Origin: an uncultured delta proteobacterium
GTDB lineage: Bacteria; Desulfobacterota; Binatia; UBA9968
Assembly: GCA_963816145.1 (NCBI GenBank)
Contig: CAWFJP010000011.1
Coordinates: forward strand, 256,001 to 320,000
DNA length: 64,000 bases
Reading direction: 5' to 3'
Part shown: piece after piece, positions 32,687 through 44,342 of the stretch
Position numbering within the stretch: the stretch's first letter is position 1
How the letters are laid out: every line of letters starts with the position of its first letter
Made by a program: the position numbers and the translations under genes
The notes under the pieces: generated by a model
What the model was told of the DNA's origin: nothing
Seen by the model: only the letters and a program-made list of their open reading frames with translations
The model's database searches: none

Positions 32687-33397
32687 CTAGAACCAGTGCT
32701 GCTCGGAGCCGATTTTCCAGCCAAGAATGAGTCCGAATCCGATGCTGGCAAATCCCGCGATCACCCGTATCCAACGGTTCATCACTGAAAAGCGCTGCGC
32801 CGTCAGGATGAATGGCAAGCCGATGATGCCGCTCAAAAGCAACATTCCGCCCACTGAGCCCAGACCGAATATGACAATGTAAGCCAGCCCCGCGAGCGGC
32901 GATGGAATCGTGCCGAGGACAAGCAACATCAACGCCGCGCTGCCGGCCAGACCATGCACCATGCCGACGAAAAACGGCCGGCGCATGGCTTTGAACGGAT
33001 GGCTGTGGCGATGATCCTGCTGCGGTTTTTCATGCACGTGAAAATGGCTGTGGGTTTCCGGATTATGTGTATGGGTATGCAAATGAACTTGCGCGGGGCC
33101 GAAGGTGCGCCACAAGACGTTCAGTCCGAGCACCACCAACATGATCGCGACCAGAAACTCGAGACCGGCCGCTACCGAGTCGGAAATCGTCACGCGCAAA
33201 CCGATAACCAGCAGGCCGACGAGAAACAACGTCGTCGTGTGGCCTAGACCCCAAAAGGCGCCGATCAACGACGCCCACTTGAAGTTTTTATGCTCGCTGA
33301 CGATGGTCGACACTGCGATCAAGTGATCGGGATCGAGCGCATGTTGAATGCCCAGTAGCAGGCCTAAACCGAAGGCGGCGTAAAGCGAAGCTTCCAT
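32687..33397 (-). CDS. UreH/NiCoT-like nickel/cobalt transporter
   Basis: HALDPDH, WGLGH, His-rich loop, GMVHGLAGS. Confidence 0.85.
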   Translation of the reverse strand: MEASLYAAFGLGLLLGIQHALDPDHLIAVSTIVSEHKNFKWASLIGAFWGLGHTTTLFLVGLLVIGLRVTISDSVAAGLEFLVAIMLVVLGLNVLWRTFGPAQVHLHTHTHNPETHSHFHVHEKPQQDHRHSHPFKAMRRPFFVGMVHGLAGSAALMLLVLGTIPSPLAGLAYIVIFGLGSVGGMLLLSGIIGLPFILTAQRFSVMNRWIRVIAGFASIGFGLILGWKIGSEQHWF

Positions 33398-33482
33398 GGT
33401 GTCAAGCGAGACAGAGTGACGAAACAGAGATCGCGATCCTCGAAGCCCTTCGAGTTGCAAGCGTTATCTCTGTCTCAATTCT

Positions 33483-36208: not shown

Positions 36209-37385
36209 ATGACCACCGTGGACTTGAACAAAATCCGCATCGATCATATCGGTAGCTTAGTGCGCCCGGCAAAGCTTAAAGAGGTCTTTGTCCGCTTCGA
36301 CCGCGGCCAAGCCGACAAAGAAGAATTGGTCCAAGCGCAAGACCGGGCGATTGACGACGTCATCGCGCAGCAGGAAAACCACGGCTATCCCGTCGTCACC
36401 GACGGCGAATTTCGCCGCCACAGTTTTCAAGAGAGTTTTTCCGAATGCGTCAGCGGCTTCGACGTGCCGAAAAATATCAATCTTTACTACGAAAAGCGCG
36501 AGTTGAACGAAAGCCCGCTTGAGCGGGCCGAGCAGAATTTTGAAGAAGCCGGACCGGCAATCATCACCCGGCGCGGCGCGGTCGAGCGCTTGAAGGCGGT
36601 GCGCAACCTGCCTATGGAGGAATTTCGCTACGCCCAGAGCGTTGCCAAAGTACCCGCAAAAGTGACGATCCTGGGCCCCGACCGCATCGCCCAACGTTTC
36701 AAATGGGAAGGATCGCTAAACGTCTACAAAGGGCTCGACGACTTTGTCGAGCATATCGTCGAGATCGAGCGTCAGATGATCGCCCAATTGGTCAACGCCG
36801 GCTGCAAATACATTCAGATCGATGCCCCTGGCTACACCGCCTACGTCGACAAAGTATCGCTGGAGCGAATGCGCTCGCGCGGCGAAGATCCGGCGAGAAA
36901 CTTCCAACGCTCCATCGACGCCGACAACGCGCTCATCGAAGGCTTTCCCGGTGTCACCTTCGGCATCCACATCTGCCGCGGCAACGCCCGCACCATCGAT
37001 CCCAAGACCGGCAAGTTGGTCCCCCAATGGCACCGCGAAGGCTCCTACGACGCCATCGCCGAAAAACTATTCAACACGCTCAAACACCAAAGGATTACTG
37101 TTGGAATACGACAGCGACCGCGCCGGCGGCTTCGAACCGTTGCGCCTGGTGCCGAGAGACAAAATCGTCGTGCTCGGCTTGGTCTCGACGAAAAACTCCG
37201 ACATGGAAAGCGTCGACGATTTGAAACGGCGCATCGACCAAGCGAGCAAACACCTGCCGCTCGATCAACTGGCGTTGAGCCCGCAGTGCGGCTTCGGCGG
37301 TATCGACTCGAAGGTGCTGAGCGAATCGGCAATGTGGACCAAATTGGATACGATCGTGAAGACGGCGCGACAGGTGTGGAATTAG
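36209..37385 (+). CDS. Cobalamin-independent methionine synthase II family (core domain only); apparent indel near 37091
   Basis: DHIGSLVRP, TDGEFRR, YIQID.P, HICRGN in the first frame; LLLEYDSDRAGGFEPL, LGLVSTK, LSPQCGF in the second. Confidence 0.85.
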
Positions 37386-37769
37386 TGTCGTGGGTGCGGT
37401 TTTTATTATCGTTCCACCATTCTTCCGTGGACGCCAACGCCGTCAATGTTCGGGTCGATATCGACGGAGAAAAAGATAGCTCCTATAGCCCGCGCCGCCA
37501 CCATCGCTGGTGCTTTTTGTGACGCGTCTGGTTCACGGCCCGACGGTGATTGAGCCGGTTTCCTTTCTTGCAGAATCCAATCGGACCTGACAGTTTAGCG
37601 TCAAAAACACTTTCACTTAAAGGCACTCAATTCATTTCATGGCTCTAAACCCAAACAAAAGAATCTGCTTGATGGCCAGCGCCGGCTTTCAGTGCAAACC
37701 TGCAGTCCTCACCCAAAGCAAATGACGAGCCGATCCATTAACAATAATTAATCTTGCAACCAGCGCTCG

Positions 37770-38950
37770 CTGTTGCGCGATTCTTGGTCTTTTTTGCGCA
37801 CTTGATCGGACTCATAGCTATTACCCGATTCGCACGTCCCCTCAAGTACAGGCGTCACTCACAGATTTCGTTGATTTTTGGGCGTCATCGCGCTTACTGA
37901 TCAATGGTGGAAATCCATTTTCACCTGTCGGAAGTTTTAGAGTTGCAGCAATCGGTAGGCTTTGCGCGAACCCAAACCACTTTTGATCTGGAATCCGCCG
38001 TGGACACTTTCGTTCCTTCTGCCCATTCGGCGCTATGCCCTTCCAGATTCAGCCAATTTGTGCTGGCTTATCTAATGAACGTTTTCTTCGTTCTGTTATC
38101 GGCGCAAAGCTATGGGCGATTTATTGTCACACCGTACCGACAACGCCTATTTGCCATGGATTGCCGCTTTCACGTTCGTTCCAACCTGAATGGTCTTGAT
38201 AATCGGCCAGATGTACACCGCTCGTCCTCCTAGGGATTGTCGGTTTTCTGCTACTTTGAAAGGAAAAACCAGCTTTACTGGGCGGGCGTATCAACAGTGA
38301 TCATGTCGGTCAAACCGCATTTGGTCTATCTGTTTTGGATCGGATTGATCCTTTGGATTTGGAAACAACGTCGACTGGCGGATTGCAGTCGGTGCGATCT
38401 TGGCTGGCATAATTATCGCCATCATACCGGCAATCATCGATCCAGCGATATATTTTCAGTTTCTCGAAATGTACCGATTCCCTGGACGATCGACTCCGTT
38501 TAATTTGCCGGCACCAAGCATCGGCAGTTTTCTGACGCTTTACGTTCCCCATGGGAATTTTCCGATTCAATTCCTGCCGCCGCTCCTCGGAAGTTTATGG
38601 TTTTTGTGGCATTGGGATAAACATAAGGAGCATTGGAATTGGTCGGAACAAACTCCGCTGATGATCTTGGTATCTCTCGCTTTCAGTCCTTACGCTTGGA
38701 CCTACGATCAGGTCATTCTACTTCCCGCGGTGATCCATGGTTTGTGATGGTAAAGCGGCAAAGCGGTTCGTGGTACAAATCCGGCCCGGGCCTCTTCGTA
38801 TATCGCGGCTAACGGATGCTATTTCGCAGGCAAGTTGTTTGTGACTACAGACTGCTTATTACTTCTGGCTCGCTCCGGCGTTTTTGCTGATATACCTGGG
38901 AGCCGGCACAGTTTCCCGCAGCAGCAGTTCGCTCAACGCGCTCTTAAAAT
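37770..38950 (+). pseudogene. GT87/DUF2029-like membrane glycosyltransferase, heavily frameshifted; ends approximate
   Basis: Fragments DFVDFWASSRLLINGGNPFSP, IWNPPWTL, VKPHL and SPYAWTYDQVILL in different frames; lower GC than flanks. Confidence 0.7.
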
Positions 38951-39110
38951 TGCATAGATACCCTTATCGATCGCTGCGAGAGATTTCACTGTCGGTACTG
39001 ATGGATATAGAATTTTAAACGACAACGAGCGGCGGCAAAAGCTCAATCCCGGCGAAGAGAACGACCAAATAAGCCGGACCGGTCAGGCAGCTATCGAAGA
39101 ACAGCCTCAA

Positions 39111-39389
39111 CTATCCGGTGTCACAACGACTCAGCCACTCCTCATGCACATCGACCCAGATGGTGTCGGTATCGTGGCAGGGCGACAGTTCGCTCAAATC
39201 GAATTTGACCGTGTAGAGCGGCTTGTGAATGCCGCGGTGATCGCGGACGTTTTCCAAAATGCCGTGAACTAGGCCGATGACACCGCGCTTGCCGCGGATG
39301 TAGCGTGGCGTGCGCGGATTGCCGGCTGGGTTGTCGTTGGCGACCATCACGGCGTCGCCGATTTTGTATTTGTTATTGGTCTCGCTCAT
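39111..39389 (-). CDS. Nitrile hydratase beta C-terminal SH3-like domain as a stand-alone subunit (ScnA-like)
   Basis: YKIGDAV, GNPRTPRYIRGKRG, LYTVKF..SEL, VDVHEEWL. Confidence 0.85.
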   Translation of the reverse strand: MSETNNKYKIGDAVMVANDNPAGNPRTPRYIRGKRGVIGLVHGILENVRDHRGIHKPLYTVKFDLSELSPCHDTDTIWVDVHEEWLSRCDTG

Positions 39390-39397
39390 AACCTTTC

Positions 39398-40471
39398 TCA
39401 ATCGGGCCGCACCCGCGGCATCTCCGGTTCGACATGGGCAGCTTCTCGCTCGCGTAGCTGCGACGGTTCGAGCGCGTAGCCGGCACCGATCAAACTATCG
39501 ACGGTGACGAGCTTGGCCAATTCCTGTTCCGACATTCCATCCGTGCCGGGAGGACGCTGCGGCAGGACGAAGTAGCGCACGTCGGAGGTGCTGTCCCAGA
39601 CCCGCATCTCCTTTTCGCGGGGAATTTCCAGCTGGAACATATCTTTGACGCAGGCGCGAGGGTTTTGCACGATGTTGGTGCGGTAGCTCTCATGCTTGTA
39701 CCACCAGGGGGTGTCGCCGAGGATGTCGTAGGGATAGCAAGAACATAATGTGCAGACGACGACGTTGTGCGTCTGCTCGGTGTTTTCGACGACAACCAAT
39801 TTGCCGACCTTCCCCTGATGTACGCCCATTTCTCTGAGCGCCTCGCGGCCGGTATCGAGCAACGCCCGTTTGAATTCCGGATCGGTCCACGCCTTCGCCA
39901 CGATCGCGCCGCCGGCCCAGGGCCGCTCTTCATGTAACTGCTTCCAACGCTGTGCCAAGTCCTCGCGCGTCGCCCAACCGCGCTGGATCAAGGCTTGGAC
40001 AAAGACCTCGAGCAATCCGTTATAATCGGTCAAATCCTGCTGCAAGTTCACCATGCGCTCTTCGAGCGTGCCGTGATGCTCTTTCTTTTTAATTTTGAAA
40101 AAATCGTCGTAGTCGCCCCGCTCCTTGCGATTGTCCTCGGTGACCATGTCCATGCCTTCGACGGTGCGCGCCGAGACCAGGGCGATGCCCTTGACGTATT
40201 CATCGAGCCACTCTTCGAGATGACGCACGCGAGCTTCGATATTCTTTCCCTGAGGCTTGGCGATCTTGAAGAAATGATCCCTCTTCTTAAGCGTCGAGCG
40301 CACTTTGAGCAAATCGTAAAACGTCACGACGTTGCGCCGCAGTAAATAAAAAAGCCGTGGCTCGAAGCGCTTGGCGCGGTAATACTCTAAGTCTTCCTCG
40401 ACGGCCTTAACATGCGCCACGTAATCATGCATGTGGCCTTCGAACGGCTTGTGGCCATGTTTTCCTGACAT
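39398..40471 (-). CDS. Co-type nitrile hydratase alpha / thiocyanate hydrolase gamma-like subunit with long N-terminal extension
   Basis: IVAKAWTDPEFK, VVENT, HNVVVCTLCSCYP, WYK..YR, VWDSTSDVRYFVLPQRP.GT; GGAGG RBS. Confidence 0.9.
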   Translation of the reverse strand: MSGKHGHKPFEGHMHDYVAHVKAVEEDLEYYRAKRFEPRLFYLLRRNVVTFYDLLKVRSTLKKRDHFFKIAKPQGKNIEARVRHLEEWLDEYVKGIALVSARTVEGMDMVTEDNRKERGDYDDFFKIKKKEHHGTLEERMVNLQQDLTDYNGLLEVFVQALIQRGWATREDLAQRWKQLHEERPWAGGAIVAKAWTDPEFKRALLDTGREALREMGVHQGKVGKLVVVENTEQTHNVVVCTLCSCYPYDILGDTPWWYKHESYRTNIVQNPRACVKDMFQLEIPREKEMRVWDSTSDVRYFVLPQRPPGTDGMSEQELAKLVTVDSLIGAGYALEPSQLREREAAHVEPEMPRVRPD

Positions 40472-40496
40472 CTGGCTTCCTCCGCGTAACTTCGCT

Positions 40497-42212
40497 TCAG
40501 TGGGTATCGAATATTTCTTGGTACTGTTTCATCTTCGTTTCGGTCGCAGCGGTTTCTGCCTGAGTCGGTTTTGCCGGGTCAAGCGCTGGCGGCACGCAGC
40601 CAAACTTTAACAAACACGCCATTAGCAGCAGCCTCGCCTTGGTCGCGGTCAGATTGCTGCCGGCGATCGCCAGCGGATCGCGCGTGGCATCGACAAAGCC
40701 GCCGGCATTGCCGCGGCCAACTTTAACCACCGGCATGCCGCTGAAAGTGGCGCGCTTGAGGGCCGCATCGACCGAGTTGCTCATGGCGCCGAACGGCGCC
40801 GAACCCTCGGCCACGAAGCCGGCGAGCGGTGCCACCCGCAAGTTATTTTCAATGCGCGCGAGAATATCGACTTCGCTACTGGCGTCGCCGGAAGCATCCG
40901 CCGGCAGGTATCGCGCATGCTTGACGATGGTCACCTTGGGAATCGCCGCGGCAAGCAGCGCCCCCGTGGTATCTTTGACCGGCAGGTTGATCGTTCCAAT
41001 CGTTGCACCTTGAACCCTTGAACCTTGAACGCTTGCCGGCAACCCGCTTATATTCACTAGCGAATTGTGCGTATGCCGTTTGATTGGCTTGAATGAAAAC
41101 TGCGGCGCGCCGGGATGACCCATTCTGCCGATGATCCCGCCATGCCCGCCCGTGGGAATGTAACCGCCGGGGCGAGCGTCGGCTTTTTGCACATCGCGCG
41201 CAGTAAAAATCTGCTCGTCGAGAATCGCGACCGCGCCGATGCAGTCCCGGCCCTGCTCATCGGCCCATATCTTCGAAGTGATGTAATCCACTGAATCGAC
41301 GATGTTACGGTCGCCGTCGTTGCCGATGGCGCCGTGTGGACGTTGCGACGAATTACCGACAATCGGTACCGTCGTGTCGATCAACAAATTGAGCCAATAG
41401 GTGGTTTCTTCGACGAATGGACTGCCCTCGAGCCAGATTCCGCCGGAATATTTGCCGCCACCCAAAGCTTGCTGAACCACATTGGTCAAACGCGCCAAAG
41501 CAGCCATGGGCGGCTCTTTGCGCAGATAGCCGGGGCGATAGGGAAAGAAATCGCTGCCACGAGTCTCAGGCGGAACATCGCCTGCGCCAATATCGGTACG
41601 TTCGCTCTCGCGCCGTCCTTTCGCGTAACCGCCCGACGGCAAGGCGCGGTAAAAGTCGAAGTCTGCCTTGGCCGTCAGCAGACAACCGACGCCTTCATCG
41701 GAAATGCCTAAACGATCGATCTCTTCGAATAATCGTGAGCCGTCTGGGAAAAATGGCACGCGGACCCGATCCGCAGAAACATTTTTGTCCGTGCCGTCCA
41801 TCTCCCAAGGCTGGCCGTTGTTTTGGCGCGCCATATAGGGCAACGGATAGAGGCCGTCTTCCGGTTTTAGAATGATCTCGTAAACCGGCTTGTCAGCAGC
41901 ACTGCTGCGATCCTTGTGAAATACTCCAGTCACGTCGAGATAGCCGTCTGGCGGCGCGTATAGTTCAGCGTGGTCCCGTTCCAAAGGGTGAGCGGTGAAC
42001 TGTTCGACATAGACCGTCACGGGTGCCGCCAAGCGCTGCGCCCGCAACACGTCGAAACGCATCGGCGAGCCATCTTTATTGGTGCGAACCGGCAAGCCGT
42101 ACTTCACCCGCGCCTTGTTGCTGGTCACCAACGGCTCGCTGTTTTGGATCGTCGCCGTCGGTCCGGAAAATACCGCGATGCGCGGTTTGGCGTCGCTGCC
42201 TGTGTCAGCCAT
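40497..42212 (-). CDS. Divergent asparaginase/glutaminase-fold protein with a large insertion
   Basis: IAVFSGPTATI (cf. TGGTI), WLEGSPFVEET (cf. HGTDTxEET), SQRP..DG.RN, DVQK, KARLLL. Confidence 0.75.
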   Translation of the reverse strand: MADTGSDAKPRIAVFSGPTATIQNSEPLVTSNKARVKYGLPVRTNKDGSPMRFDVLRAQRLAAPVTVYVEQFTAHPLERDHAELYAPPDGYLDVTGVFHKDRSSAADKPVYEIILKPEDGLYPLPYMARQNNGQPWEMDGTDKNVSADRVRVPFFPDGSRLFEEIDRLGISDEGVGCLLTAKADFDFYRALPSGGYAKGRRESERTDIGAGDVPPETRGSDFFPYRPGYLRKEPPMAALARLTNVVQQALGGGKYSGGIWLEGSPFVEETTYWLNLLIDTTVPIVGNSSQRPHGAIGNDGDRNIVDSVDYITSKIWADEQGRDCIGAVAILDEQIFTARDVQKADARPGGYIPTGGHGGIIGRMGHPGAPQFSFKPIKRHTHNSLVNISGLPASVQGSRVQGATIGTINLPVKDTTGALLAAAIPKVTIVKHARYLPADASGDASSEVDILARIENNLRVAPLAGFVAEGSAPFGAMSNSVDAALKRATFSGMPVVKVGRGNAGGFVDATRDPLAIAGSNLTATKARLLLMACLLKFGCVPPALDPAKPTQAETAATETKMKQYQEIFDTH

Positions 42213-42252
42213 CGTGAACTCGCTGGACTAGATTGAACTCAATCGACGAATT

Positions 42253-42849
42253 TTATTTGAGTTCAAACGGCAGCTGCTTGGGCCCATAACCCTGCCAATA
42301 TTTGTTGGTCGCGGGGTCGTAGCGCCCTTGGAGAAAACCGCCGGCCTTTTCTGCACGTACGATGATCGCTACCGTCCGTTGATCGCCGCTTTCCTCCGCG
42401 TGAATCGCATAGGGCGGAACCAAGTCGATCTTGCCGGCGCTGACTTTGACGTTCACCGACTTGCGCACCTCGGCGTAGTTCGGCTTCGAGCCGTCGTCGA
42501 GTCGCTCGTAACGCTCGATCGATTCGGAACCGTCGAGCACGCCGTAAAGCGTCCAGTTATGCGCGTGATCGTGGATTGCTGTGCGAGTATGTGGCGCCTT
42601 GATCAAACCATTGATGACGAACTTGTAATCGGGATCCTCGTAGAATAGAAGATTCTCAGCACGCTCGCCGCCCTGGGAGCAATCGGGCCAGTATTTTGAC
42701 TGTTCTTTCACTGCCGGATCGGCGATCAACTCCTGGAGGAGCGGCGTCATTTTCTCCCAGCGTTTTGCCGGGTCGGCTTCCTCGGCGTGAAGCATGCGTG
42801 CGGACGCGATAAATTTCTTTACAGCGGACATAAGATCCTCCTTTGGCAT
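42253..42849 (-). CDS. Cysteine-dioxygenase-like cupin (3-His metal site)
   Basis: TAIHDHAHNWTLYGVLDG.E...Y and PYAIHAE. Confidence 0.75.
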   Translation of the reverse strand: MPKEDLMSAVKKFIASARMLHAEEADPAKRWEKMTPLLQELIADPAVKEQSKYWPDCSQGGERAENLLFYEDPDYKFVINGLIKAPHTRTAIHDHAHNWTLYGVLDGSESIERYERLDDGSKPNYAEVRKSVNVKVSAGKIDLVPPYAIHAEESGDQRTVAIIVRAEKAGGFLQGRYDPATNKYWQGYGPKQLPFELK

Positions 42850-42949
42850 AATGCCAATTATGACTAGTTATCGAATTATTAGTCCGATGAGACGCTAGTC
42901 GTCAAGCTGGACTAGAGGATTTCAATTTACCGATTCCAAATTCCAAAAT

Positions 42950-42988
42950 AAAAAAGTCTCCGACAGCGATCAAGCCAGCGGAGCCTTT
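42950..42988 (-). terminator. Probable terminator after ahcY
   Basis: Minus-strand AAAGGCTCCG...CGGAGACTTT stem followed by a T-run. Confidence 0.5.
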
Positions 42989-43010
42989 CGGACCGGTTAG
43001 TAAATCGAAC

Positions 43011-44342
<1,332 letters not shown>

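Follow-up and report, generated by a model that had tools for sequence, protein, structure and literature searches.

To our knowledge, nitrile hydratases (NHases) are held, as a rule, to need a complete beta subunit together with an activator of their own. Cobalt-type (Co-type) enzymes carry the signature VCTLCSCY within a metal-binding motif C-(T/S)-L-C-S-C, and NHase genes are classically accompanied by an amide hydrolase gene. Here we describe a locus with a different layout, found in a 64,000-nucleotide stretch of DNA (the window) from an uncultured delta proteobacterium of the class Binatia (GenBank assembly GCA_963816145.1, contig CAWFJP010000011.1, here C11, positions 256,001 to 320,000). 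A block of four co-oriented genes at 39111-42849 on the minus strand, with gaps of 40, 25 and 8 bp, encodes a cysteine dioxygenase (CDO)-like cupin, an asparaginase-fold protein, an NHase alpha subunit with a long N-terminal extension, and a short piece that corresponds to the C-terminal domain of an NHase beta subunit (beta-C). The features are as follows, with the evidence for each open reading frame (ORF) in brackets.

42253..42849, minus strand: CDO-family cupin, 198 aa (ORF; best phmmer match in the PDB is 8VNI)
40497..42212, minus strand: long asparaginase-fold protein, 571 aa (ORF; PF00710, E 3.4e-10)
39398..40471, minus strand: NHase alpha subunit, 357 aa (ORF; PF02979, E 1e-63)
39992..40471, minus strand: coding part of the alpha N-terminal extension, residues 1-160 (alignments and AlphaFold2, AF2, models)
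39111..39389, minus strand: NHase beta C-terminal (SH3-like) domain, 92 aa (PF02211, E 1.4e-15)

The described systems closest to the two NHase-like genes resemble them in some respects and differ in others. Co-type NHases such as those of Pseudonocardia thermophila (1IRE) and Bacillus RAPc8 (2DPP) have alpha subunits 45-50% identical to the alpha domain of the window, the same VCTLCSCY and the same beta-C stretch RxPxYxRGK, but the window pair has no beta N-terminal domain (beta-N) and no nearby accessory gene, bears an additional 150-residue helical domain on alpha, and falls in a separate clade. Thiocyanate hydrolase (SCNase; ScnB-ScnA-ScnC of Thiobacillus thioparus, 2DD4) belongs to the same superfamily and shares the cobalt Cys-Ser-Cys site and a split beta, whereas the window locus has no ScnB-type beta-N gene and its alpha scores below the cut-off of TIGR03887. 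The linker of Monosiga-type NHase fusions is reported to include a His-rich segment. These fused beta-alpha enzymes (Monosiga brevicollis; accessible parts of PMC2603476 and PMC3323583) also have an unusual architecture with extra sequence on one chain; however, a complete beta is there fused to alpha, and the domain added to the window alpha is not beta-like. Finally, the three-subunit NHases of Streptomyces canus (AnhD-AnhE-AnhA) and S. rimosus (the toyocamycin NHase) have a small separate beta-C and no activator gene, but according to the accessible part of PMC7329996 they keep a beta-N (AnhD) that is needed for activity and has a chaperone role; the window locus has no beta-N, and its alpha carries an unrelated extension. 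In the literature searched, which did not include subscription literature, we found no description of a long-alpha/short-beta-C clade, no work joining nitrile hydratase with Binatia or with an asparaginase and a cupin, and no gene cluster of an NHase with a thiol dioxygenase.

The long-alpha/short-beta-C pair

The clade of NHases with a long alpha and a short beta-C is the most solid and most novel element of this locus, and by comparison across genomes the last two genes of the block are its only robust unit. In the 357-aa protein, the Co-type alpha domain with VCTLCSCY occupies residues 156-340 (PF02979 NHase_alpha on residues 157-330, E 1e-63; 214.5 bits, cut-off 27.2), and the metal motif reads VVVCTLCSCYPY in the translation. 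C240, C243, S244, C245 and Y246 are invariant in an 8-row alignment (A1). With Foldseek, all matches to the model of the whole alpha were NHase alpha or SCNase gamma chains, and target-normalised template-modelling (TM) scores to Co-type NHases were 0.75-0.78; by sequence, SCNase gamma (2DD4) aligned to residues 138-331 (E 2.4e-36), more weakly than the NHase alphas did. The partner matches PF02211 NHase_beta_C (E 1.4e-15) and covers no more than positions 133-225 of the 226 in the TIGR03888 model, whose beta equivalog cut-off it does not reach. Within its RTPRYIRGK stretch, R30, P32, Y34 and G37 (96-aa numbering) are among the residues that do not vary in alignment A4. As listed, its ORF spans 39111-39401 (96 aa) with a TTG start that overlaps the alpha stop; the true start is most likely the ATG at 39389, 8 nt past the alpha stop, because GAAAGG sits 5-10 nt upstream of it, and this gives 92 aa. 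The gene identities, co-orientation and spacing given in an earlier sequence-only reading of this stretch are borne out by these profile and phmmer matches, the ORFs and the ATG at 39389.

Modelling the two NHase-like chains together, a check which that reading had proposed, gave an interface score (ipSAE) of 0.80 against 0.00 for the best control, a mark that 116 of 157 solved complexes attain, as do 2 of 215 mismatched pairs. The partner has a predicted local distance difference test (pLDDT) score of at least 79, contacts agree across runs in at least 77%, and the model places beta-C residues 30-34 next to residues 241-242 of alpha, in the metal motif. This pass may reflect likeness to solved NHase complexes rather than give independent proof of binding.

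The constancy of the pair was followed through 45 loci of a genome collection whose long-form alpha spans the extension at 70% identity or more, nearly all of them in metagenome-assembled genomes (MAGs) labelled Binatia or "delta proteobacterium" and a few on contigs binned elsewhere, and through a metagenome scan seeded with distant members, which added 20 close and 11 distant long-form loci. Among loci with at least 320 nt of downstream sequence, a short beta-C lies directly after the long alpha in 41/41 close genome loci, 18/18 close metagenome loci and 9/9 distant loci (68/68); the same holds in L185-L187. Several close homologues sit on contigs binned into unrelated phyla. The distant long-form loci have neighbours unrelated to one another, and the annotated ones among them contain neither a beta-N nor an accessory gene. 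Distant full-length members (P0134, P0151, P0164, P0168 and P0178) are 332-352 aa long, with 39-51% overall identity, and all keep the metal motif except P0178, which reads CFFCSCY instead of CTLCSCY. P0178 sits on a very long branch and may be an altered-chemistry variant or decaying.

A phylogeny had likewise been suggested as a check, and the alpha does not nest among the 51 canonical enzymes sampled. In a maximum-likelihood tree of 79 alpha domains (quick LG+G4 search, root unknown; Fe-type NHase and SCNase sequences left out, after de-replication of the input at 88% identity and manual removal of 19 close Binatia long-form rows), all 24 long-form alphas fall on one side of a branch with a Shimodaira-Hasegawa-like approximate likelihood ratio test (SH-aLRT) support of 100, opposite the 51 canonical alphas, which include that of P. 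thermophila and the genome's own copies on contigs C3 and C30. Four more rows lie on the long-form side: L092, L119 and L120, which are truncated by contig ends, and L093, which is full-length by tblastn with a shorter ORF. The comparisons together show a conserved pair in a clade apart from the canonical alphas sampled, with no beta-N or accessory gene nearby.

Across 301 genomes of the class (tallies that include the unpublished G504, G499 and G474, on which no individual claim depends), NHase-alpha-like matches occur in 199 and full-length long forms in 22, all within families f1 and f100. Twelve of the 22 are at least 73% identical (one is partial), eight are at 52-54% and two at 45-46%; G510 has two long-form copies. 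In wetland and soil metagenomes, 14 DNA runs hold 74-79% of the sampled words of the stretch. On contig L087, a TFIIB gene (1698-2372) stands beside a long-alpha/short-beta-C pair, which suggests that the contig is archaeal and that the clade also occurs in archaea; the accessible part of a floodplain-nitrifier study describes ammonia-oxidising archaea that encode "nthA" (PMC12625717).

The sequence-only reading had found no beta-N, activator or standard amidase in the window and had called the pair non-canonical. Both points stand: a Pfam scan of 63 further ORFs of at least 100 aa (E<=1e-8) found no beta-N, NHase accessory, amidase-signature or nitrilase-superfamily gene in the window, and both chains fall below the NCBIfam equivalog cut-offs. 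That reading had also raised the possibility that a stray beta-N elsewhere completes an ordinary enzyme. The assembly (7.8 Mb, 31 contigs) holds three NHase alphas and three beta-N (PF21006) matches, all three of the latter on C3 and C30 and none on C11. They belong to two loci, a canonical Co-type set of alpha (288.8 bits), full beta (255.7 bits) and accessory protein (TIGR03889, 103.3 bits) at C3:326437-329985 (L001), and a three-subunit locus of beta-N, beta-C and alpha (264.1 bits, TIGR01323) at C30:3870-7412 (L002). Because both loci are self-contained, by gene content no orphan beta-N remains for the window pair. One organism would then hold three architecturally different NHases. The assembly (G000) has 6.7% estimated contamination and, at 7.8 Mb, compares with 3.9-5.7 Mb for six genomes of the same genus, so the bin may hold extra material.

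The alpha extension and the upstream genes

Residues 1-155 of alpha make up a clade-specific helical extension with a His-rich start, and they have no match in Pfam, NCBIfam or PDB sequences. The extension is rare: with phmmer, residues 1-160 matched 103 of 1.84 billion cluster representatives at E<=1e-3, 72 at 1e-10 and 17 at 1e-30, many of them fragments, and no canonical beta is among the 103. Its start, HMHDxxAH, is almost invariant. Neither A1 nor a 16-row alignment (A6) shows any variation at D27, Y30, K34, R35, R45, L85, E86, R115, G119 and Y121, with D27, R35 and R45 down to at least 90% in a 20-row alignment (A2); E117, D122 and F125 are invariant in A1-A3, and of these E117 stays at 90% or above in A6, where D122 and F125 vary. 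AF2 predicts helices at 17-45, 51-60 and 78-100, then a loop (102-126) that carries the cluster from Arg115 to Phe125, and then the usual first alpha helix; the mean pLDDT of an extension-only model is 77.0. On these alignments the extension behaves as a separate, clade-specific domain, and that it is a diverged beta-N cannot be shown. A local resemblance between "EYYRAKR..." of the extension and "YYEHW..." of beta was not significant and was set aside. PF27793, listed in precomputed Pfam annotations of some homologues, may already cover the extension.

The 571-aa protein upstream of alpha is recognised by PF00710 (40.2 bits, cut-off 22.5), and both asparaginase domains appear in precomputed Pfam annotations of its relatives; in the window protein itself PF17763 scores 29.1 bits, under its cut-off of 34.6, and TIGR00520 gives 54.7 bits, far short of 314.3. 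The catalytic residues of canonical asparaginases are Thr12, Thr89-Asp90 and Lys162 (E. coli numbering), the Asp binding the alpha-amino group of the substrate. Compared with type II L-asparaginases (2WLT, 1AGX, 3ECA), both domains are recognisable and the equivalents of the nucleophile Thr (T21, in SGPTATI) and of the Lys (K343) are invariant in a family alignment (A5), but the window protein is 571 aa long, has about 200 residues inserted between the first strand and the remaining fold, and reads EGSPF at the position of HGTDT. The family occurs in 32 of the 301 genomes, all of one order: G000, 10 of 25 genomes in f1, 18 of 21 in f99 and 3 of 3 in f100. The f99 and f100 proteins are 45-64% identical to it, and their genes stand well away from all NHase and cupin genes, in contexts that vary and show no recurring partner. 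In the ESM Atlas it groups with 558-571-aa asparaginase-domain clusters from Actinomycetota and Pseudomonadota. From these matches it is best called a family member without an assigned substrate. Where the gene occurs without NHase in G560 and G588, it is flanked by ORFs of 235-295 aa (L177 5776-6663; L178 58-765 and 2559-3386) that have no significant Pfam family.

The cupin has no NCBIfam match and no Pfam family at E<=0.1, and hence no match to PF05995 (CDO_I). Its nearest solved relatives by phmmer are mercaptosuccinate dioxygenase (MSDO, 8VNI; E 9.2e-10) and, at E 1e-5 to 4e-5, CDO and 3-mercaptopropionate dioxygenase, and its ESM Atlas neighbours are named "cysteine dioxygenase family". 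Like these enzymes it belongs to the cupin fold family, and its three His ligands of the iron, H93, H95 and H150, align with H93, H95 and H149 of MSDO. It differs from the group in having no PF05995 match, and from MSDO in reading Ala64, Asn66 and Leu82 for Gln64, Arg66 and Asn82, in pairwise alignments where a shift of one residue is possible. The ligand identities, motif and substrate-Arg roles follow the accessible part of the MSDO preprint, in which thiol dioxygenases have an outer-sphere Ser/His-His-Tyr motif and an Arg for the substrate carboxylate (Arg60 in CDO, Arg66 in MSDO). The family is found in 49 genomes of the class and is multi-copy. In f99 and f100, a cupin 56-70% identical to that of the window adjoins an Amidohydro_2 (PF04909) gene. 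Two paralogues in G000 (C5:349621-350196 and C13:224017-224577) do the same, as do L188, L189 and L194, and genes for NMT1/THI5-like binding proteins are often near such pairs. Because paralogues repeatedly adjoin Amidohydro_2, cupin-plus-hydrolase pairing is, by gene neighbourhood, recurrent. The cupin too is best called, from its alignments, a member of its family (the thiol dioxygenases) without an assigned substrate.

Both upstream genes accompany the pair in nearly all close relatives. In loci that are 70% or more identical and whose sequence reaches 2.5 kb or further upstream, cupin and asparaginase-like gene both precede the pair in 37/38 genome and 12/13 metagenome loci (49/51), the exceptions being L042 (neither) and L103 (cupin only). 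Further upstream, ahcY is present in 24/32 and 8/9 close loci, and the block therefore also occurs with other upstream neighbours. Close relatives have flanking synteny in common, with rapZ-hpr-metK-ahcY upstream and a metE-like gene and hemW downstream. The same chromosomal site holds other combinations elsewhere. In G560, rapZ-hpr-metK-ahcY is followed by a 295-aa ORF and the asparaginase-like gene, without cupin or NHase; in G396 the site has the cupin and NHase; and genus g202 (L191, L192) has metK-ahcY-cupin without NHase or asparaginase-like gene. The metK-ahcY-cupin arrangement looks like the older one in the family of the window, and on our reading of these layouts the NHase pair and the asparaginase-like gene would be separable modules that joined behind it in one sub-lineage.

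The four-gene unit is probably co-transcribed. Contigs from four metatranscriptome runs match all four genes and ahcY at 90% identity or more; all are short (for example a 100-nt piece on beta-C with 0 differences, and a 325-nt piece on the 3' end of alpha with 2, both from X15), and as an RNA library may contain DNA, carry-over is possible for these matches.

The rest of the window is housekeeping: rpoN, lpt, kds, pyrG, rapZ, hpr, metK, ahcY, glmS and glmU. A NicO-family nickel/cobalt transporter-like gene (32687-33460, minus strand; PF03824, E 4.2e-9) is found some 5.6 kb away from the NHase pair, and cobalt NHase clusters often include a transporter of this type. Downstream of the block, a cobalamin-independent methionine-synthase-like (metE-like, PF01717) gene at 36209-37385 on the plus strand is broken across two reading frames, and its counterpart in L007 is a single open frame of 385 aa; the split would be either a frameshift pseudogene or an assembly error. 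Between it and beta-C lie about 1.6 kb (37500-39100) with a G+C content of 0.48-0.49 vs 0.55-0.58, where the only ORFs are short, overlap one another and resemble fragments of a membrane protein, with no Pfam match. In most relatives the metE-like gene follows beta-C immediately, and L018 has part of this insert.

Weighing the readings of the cluster

On balance we favour the reading that the last two genes are a self-contained two-gene NHase of a distinct clade, placed in Binatia within a lineage-specific operon with an amidohydrolase and a cupin. The pair would hydrate a nitrile, probably a polar one, to the amide, the asparaginase-fold protein would release acid and ammonia from the amide, and the cupin would oxidise a thiol carried by the same sulfur metabolite or a related one; in one Binatia lineage, the pair and the asparaginase-fold gene would have been placed directly behind an older metK-ahcY-cupin. 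Such a lineage-specific route from nitrile through amide to acid, tied to thiol oxidation, is plausible from the gene content and a reasonable working model. The extension has invariant Arg, Tyr and acidic residues and could take over the jobs of the beta N-domain, namely closing the active site and supplying second-shell residues, and its His-rich start perhaps replaces the cobalt chaperone. We infer the replacement of beta-N from its absence, from the conserved charged and aromatic residues, and from S. canus, where alpha with the beta-C piece alone has very low activity according to the accessible part of PMC7329996, a result that also speaks against a self-sufficient pair.

A bolder version of this reading is possible, and we hold it only tentatively. 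It has an unrelated helical domain on alpha replacing both the beta N-domain and the cobalt chaperone, with the enzyme self-maturing through its His-rich N-terminus and an Arg115/Tyr121 loop closing the active site. This form would exist in Binatia, other bacteria and archaea (the "nthA only" genomes), and in Binatia it would feed a route from a sulfur-bearing nitrile or organic thiocyanate to ammonia and a sulfinate.

A number of observations weigh against the favoured reading. For the role given to the extension, the loop from 102 to 126 has a pLDDT below 50, and its placement at the active site is pure inference. Resemblance of the extension to beta-N was sought in several ways: hhalign of the long-form extension alignment against canonical beta subunits from the fetched loci gave probabilities of 1.4% and 2.3% (cleaned beta set), Foldseek of the extension alone against the PDB gave no match at E<=0.001, and VIA-align against 48,161 chains reached a best Z of 5.7, its best 50 matches being generic helical bundles that did not include an NHase beta; these searches do not speak for a novel fold. 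For the enzymes upstream, the HGTDT position of the asparaginase-like family reads EGSP(F/N/H), with S264-P265 invariant and no Thr-Asp pair, and the cupin keeps neither the Ser-His-Tyr motif, where Ile and Arg stand at the His and Tyr positions, nor the substrate Arg. The cupin is also present in five copies in G000, and in f99, a sister family without long-form NHase, the 18 of 21 genomes with the asparaginase-like gene have it unlinked to a cupin.

Beyond one clade, the four genes are only weakly coupled. The asparaginase-like gene is absent beside the NHase in L103 and G396, and both neighbours are absent in L042/G510, G528 and G412; G396, G528 and G412, each 98% complete, have a long NHase yet no asparaginase-like gene at E<=1e-25. 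Neither cupin nor asparaginase-like gene accompanies any of the six testable distant long forms (0/3, and 0/3 in L185-L187). The conservation of the block is partly plain inheritance, to judge from the layouts, because close relatives share flanking synteny. Finally, no RNA contig in the four runs bridges a gene junction with 31 nt on each side. The sequence-only reading had taken the four genes for a distinct enzyme system with conserved synteny. This holds for the close relatives and breaks down in the distant loci, where members keep only alpha and beta-C; as one conserved system the four genes do not stand, since the modules also occur alone.

One rival, in essence the full interpretation of the sequence-only reading, makes the four genes a single dedicated pathway acting in sequence on one sulfur-bearing nitrile or organic thiocyanate. 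Candidate routes would be R-SCN to an S-carbamoyl thiol, then to free thiol, CO2 and NH3, and on to a sulfinate, or mercapto-nitrile to mercapto-amide to mercapto-acid to sulfinate. The tight spacing and co-orientation fit this, as do the 49 of 51 close loci with all four together and the block that stays whole without metK-ahcY in front of it. On paper the three chemistries form a chain, the lost Asp of the asparaginase-fold protein suits an amide that is not an amino acid, and the best solved relative of the cupin oxidises mercaptosuccinate. Against these, the modules separate freely within the same order, down to metK-ahcY-cupin alone in L191 and L192 and none of six testable distant NHase-clade loci with either neighbour; the residues with which MSDO and CDO hold substrate carboxylates are missing from the cupin, and no candidate natural substrate is known. 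We consider a dedicated pathway somewhat unlikely.

The opposite explanation is that only shared descent makes the genes neighbours: an NHase pair and an asparaginase-like gene, both autonomous, would have landed in a variable spot behind metK-ahcY-cupin, and each would serve a pathway of its own. Every module stands alone in some related genomes, the same site carries varied combinations (G560, G396, g202), and the flanking synteny among close relatives is long. However, gaps of 8-40 bp leave scant room for promoters, and a weak scan of 38700-43200, with 4 promoter-like sites against 2.0 expected and 5 terminator-like sites against 5.7 expected, showed nothing informative, and no terminator-like site, on the coding strand between the four genes. 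The block also stays intact despite differing upstream neighbours, and an NHase beside an amide hydrolase is the classical pairing. Descent alone therefore seems to us unlikely.

That the pair is not an NHase at all, its Cys-Ser-Cys site serving thiocyanate, another heterocumulene or amide chemistry, or being catalytically dead, we judge very unlikely. The alpha does miss both equivalog cut-offs, that of NHase alpha (TIGR01323, 208.1 vs 249.85 bits) and that of SCNase gamma (TIGR03887, 148.5 vs 291.45 bits); half of the canonical pocket, the beta N-domain, is missing, and P0178 has CFFCSCY as its motif. But the alpha domain is 45-50% identical to Co-type NHases that have been characterised, no position of the metal motif or its flanking residues varies across the clade (A1), the scores lie nearer to NHase than to SCNase, and the invariant Arg-Pro-x-Tyr of beta-C is modelled against the metal motif. 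Hardly credible, finally, is a cupin that serves as a maturation factor, oxidising the active-site Cys of the NHase to sulfinate in place of the missing activator: it adjoins an NHase without accessory gene and is itself without the small-molecule-binding Arg and the Ser-His-Tyr motif, and thiol dioxygenases of the ADO and PCO type do act on protein cysteines (accessible part of PMC8503633), but these do so at an N-terminal Cys, which none of the cluster proteins has, no cupin adjoins the distant long forms or those of G528, G412 and G510, and the cupin is multi-copy and older than the NHase at the site.

If the two-gene NHase that we favour is correct, its meaning reaches beyond this genome. 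NHases are industrial catalysts, and a natural clade without full beta and activator would provide a fresh scaffold and another view of the assembly and closure of the cobalt site. Soil and wetland metagenomes commonly contain the clade, which seems to explain "alpha-only" NHase calls in environmental genomes and thus affects how the turnover of nitriles and organic nitrogen is read from metagenomes. In Binatia, the cluster sets two orphan groups, the long asparaginase-fold proteins and the CDO-like cupins without the motif, beside a defined chemistry, which makes their functions testable.

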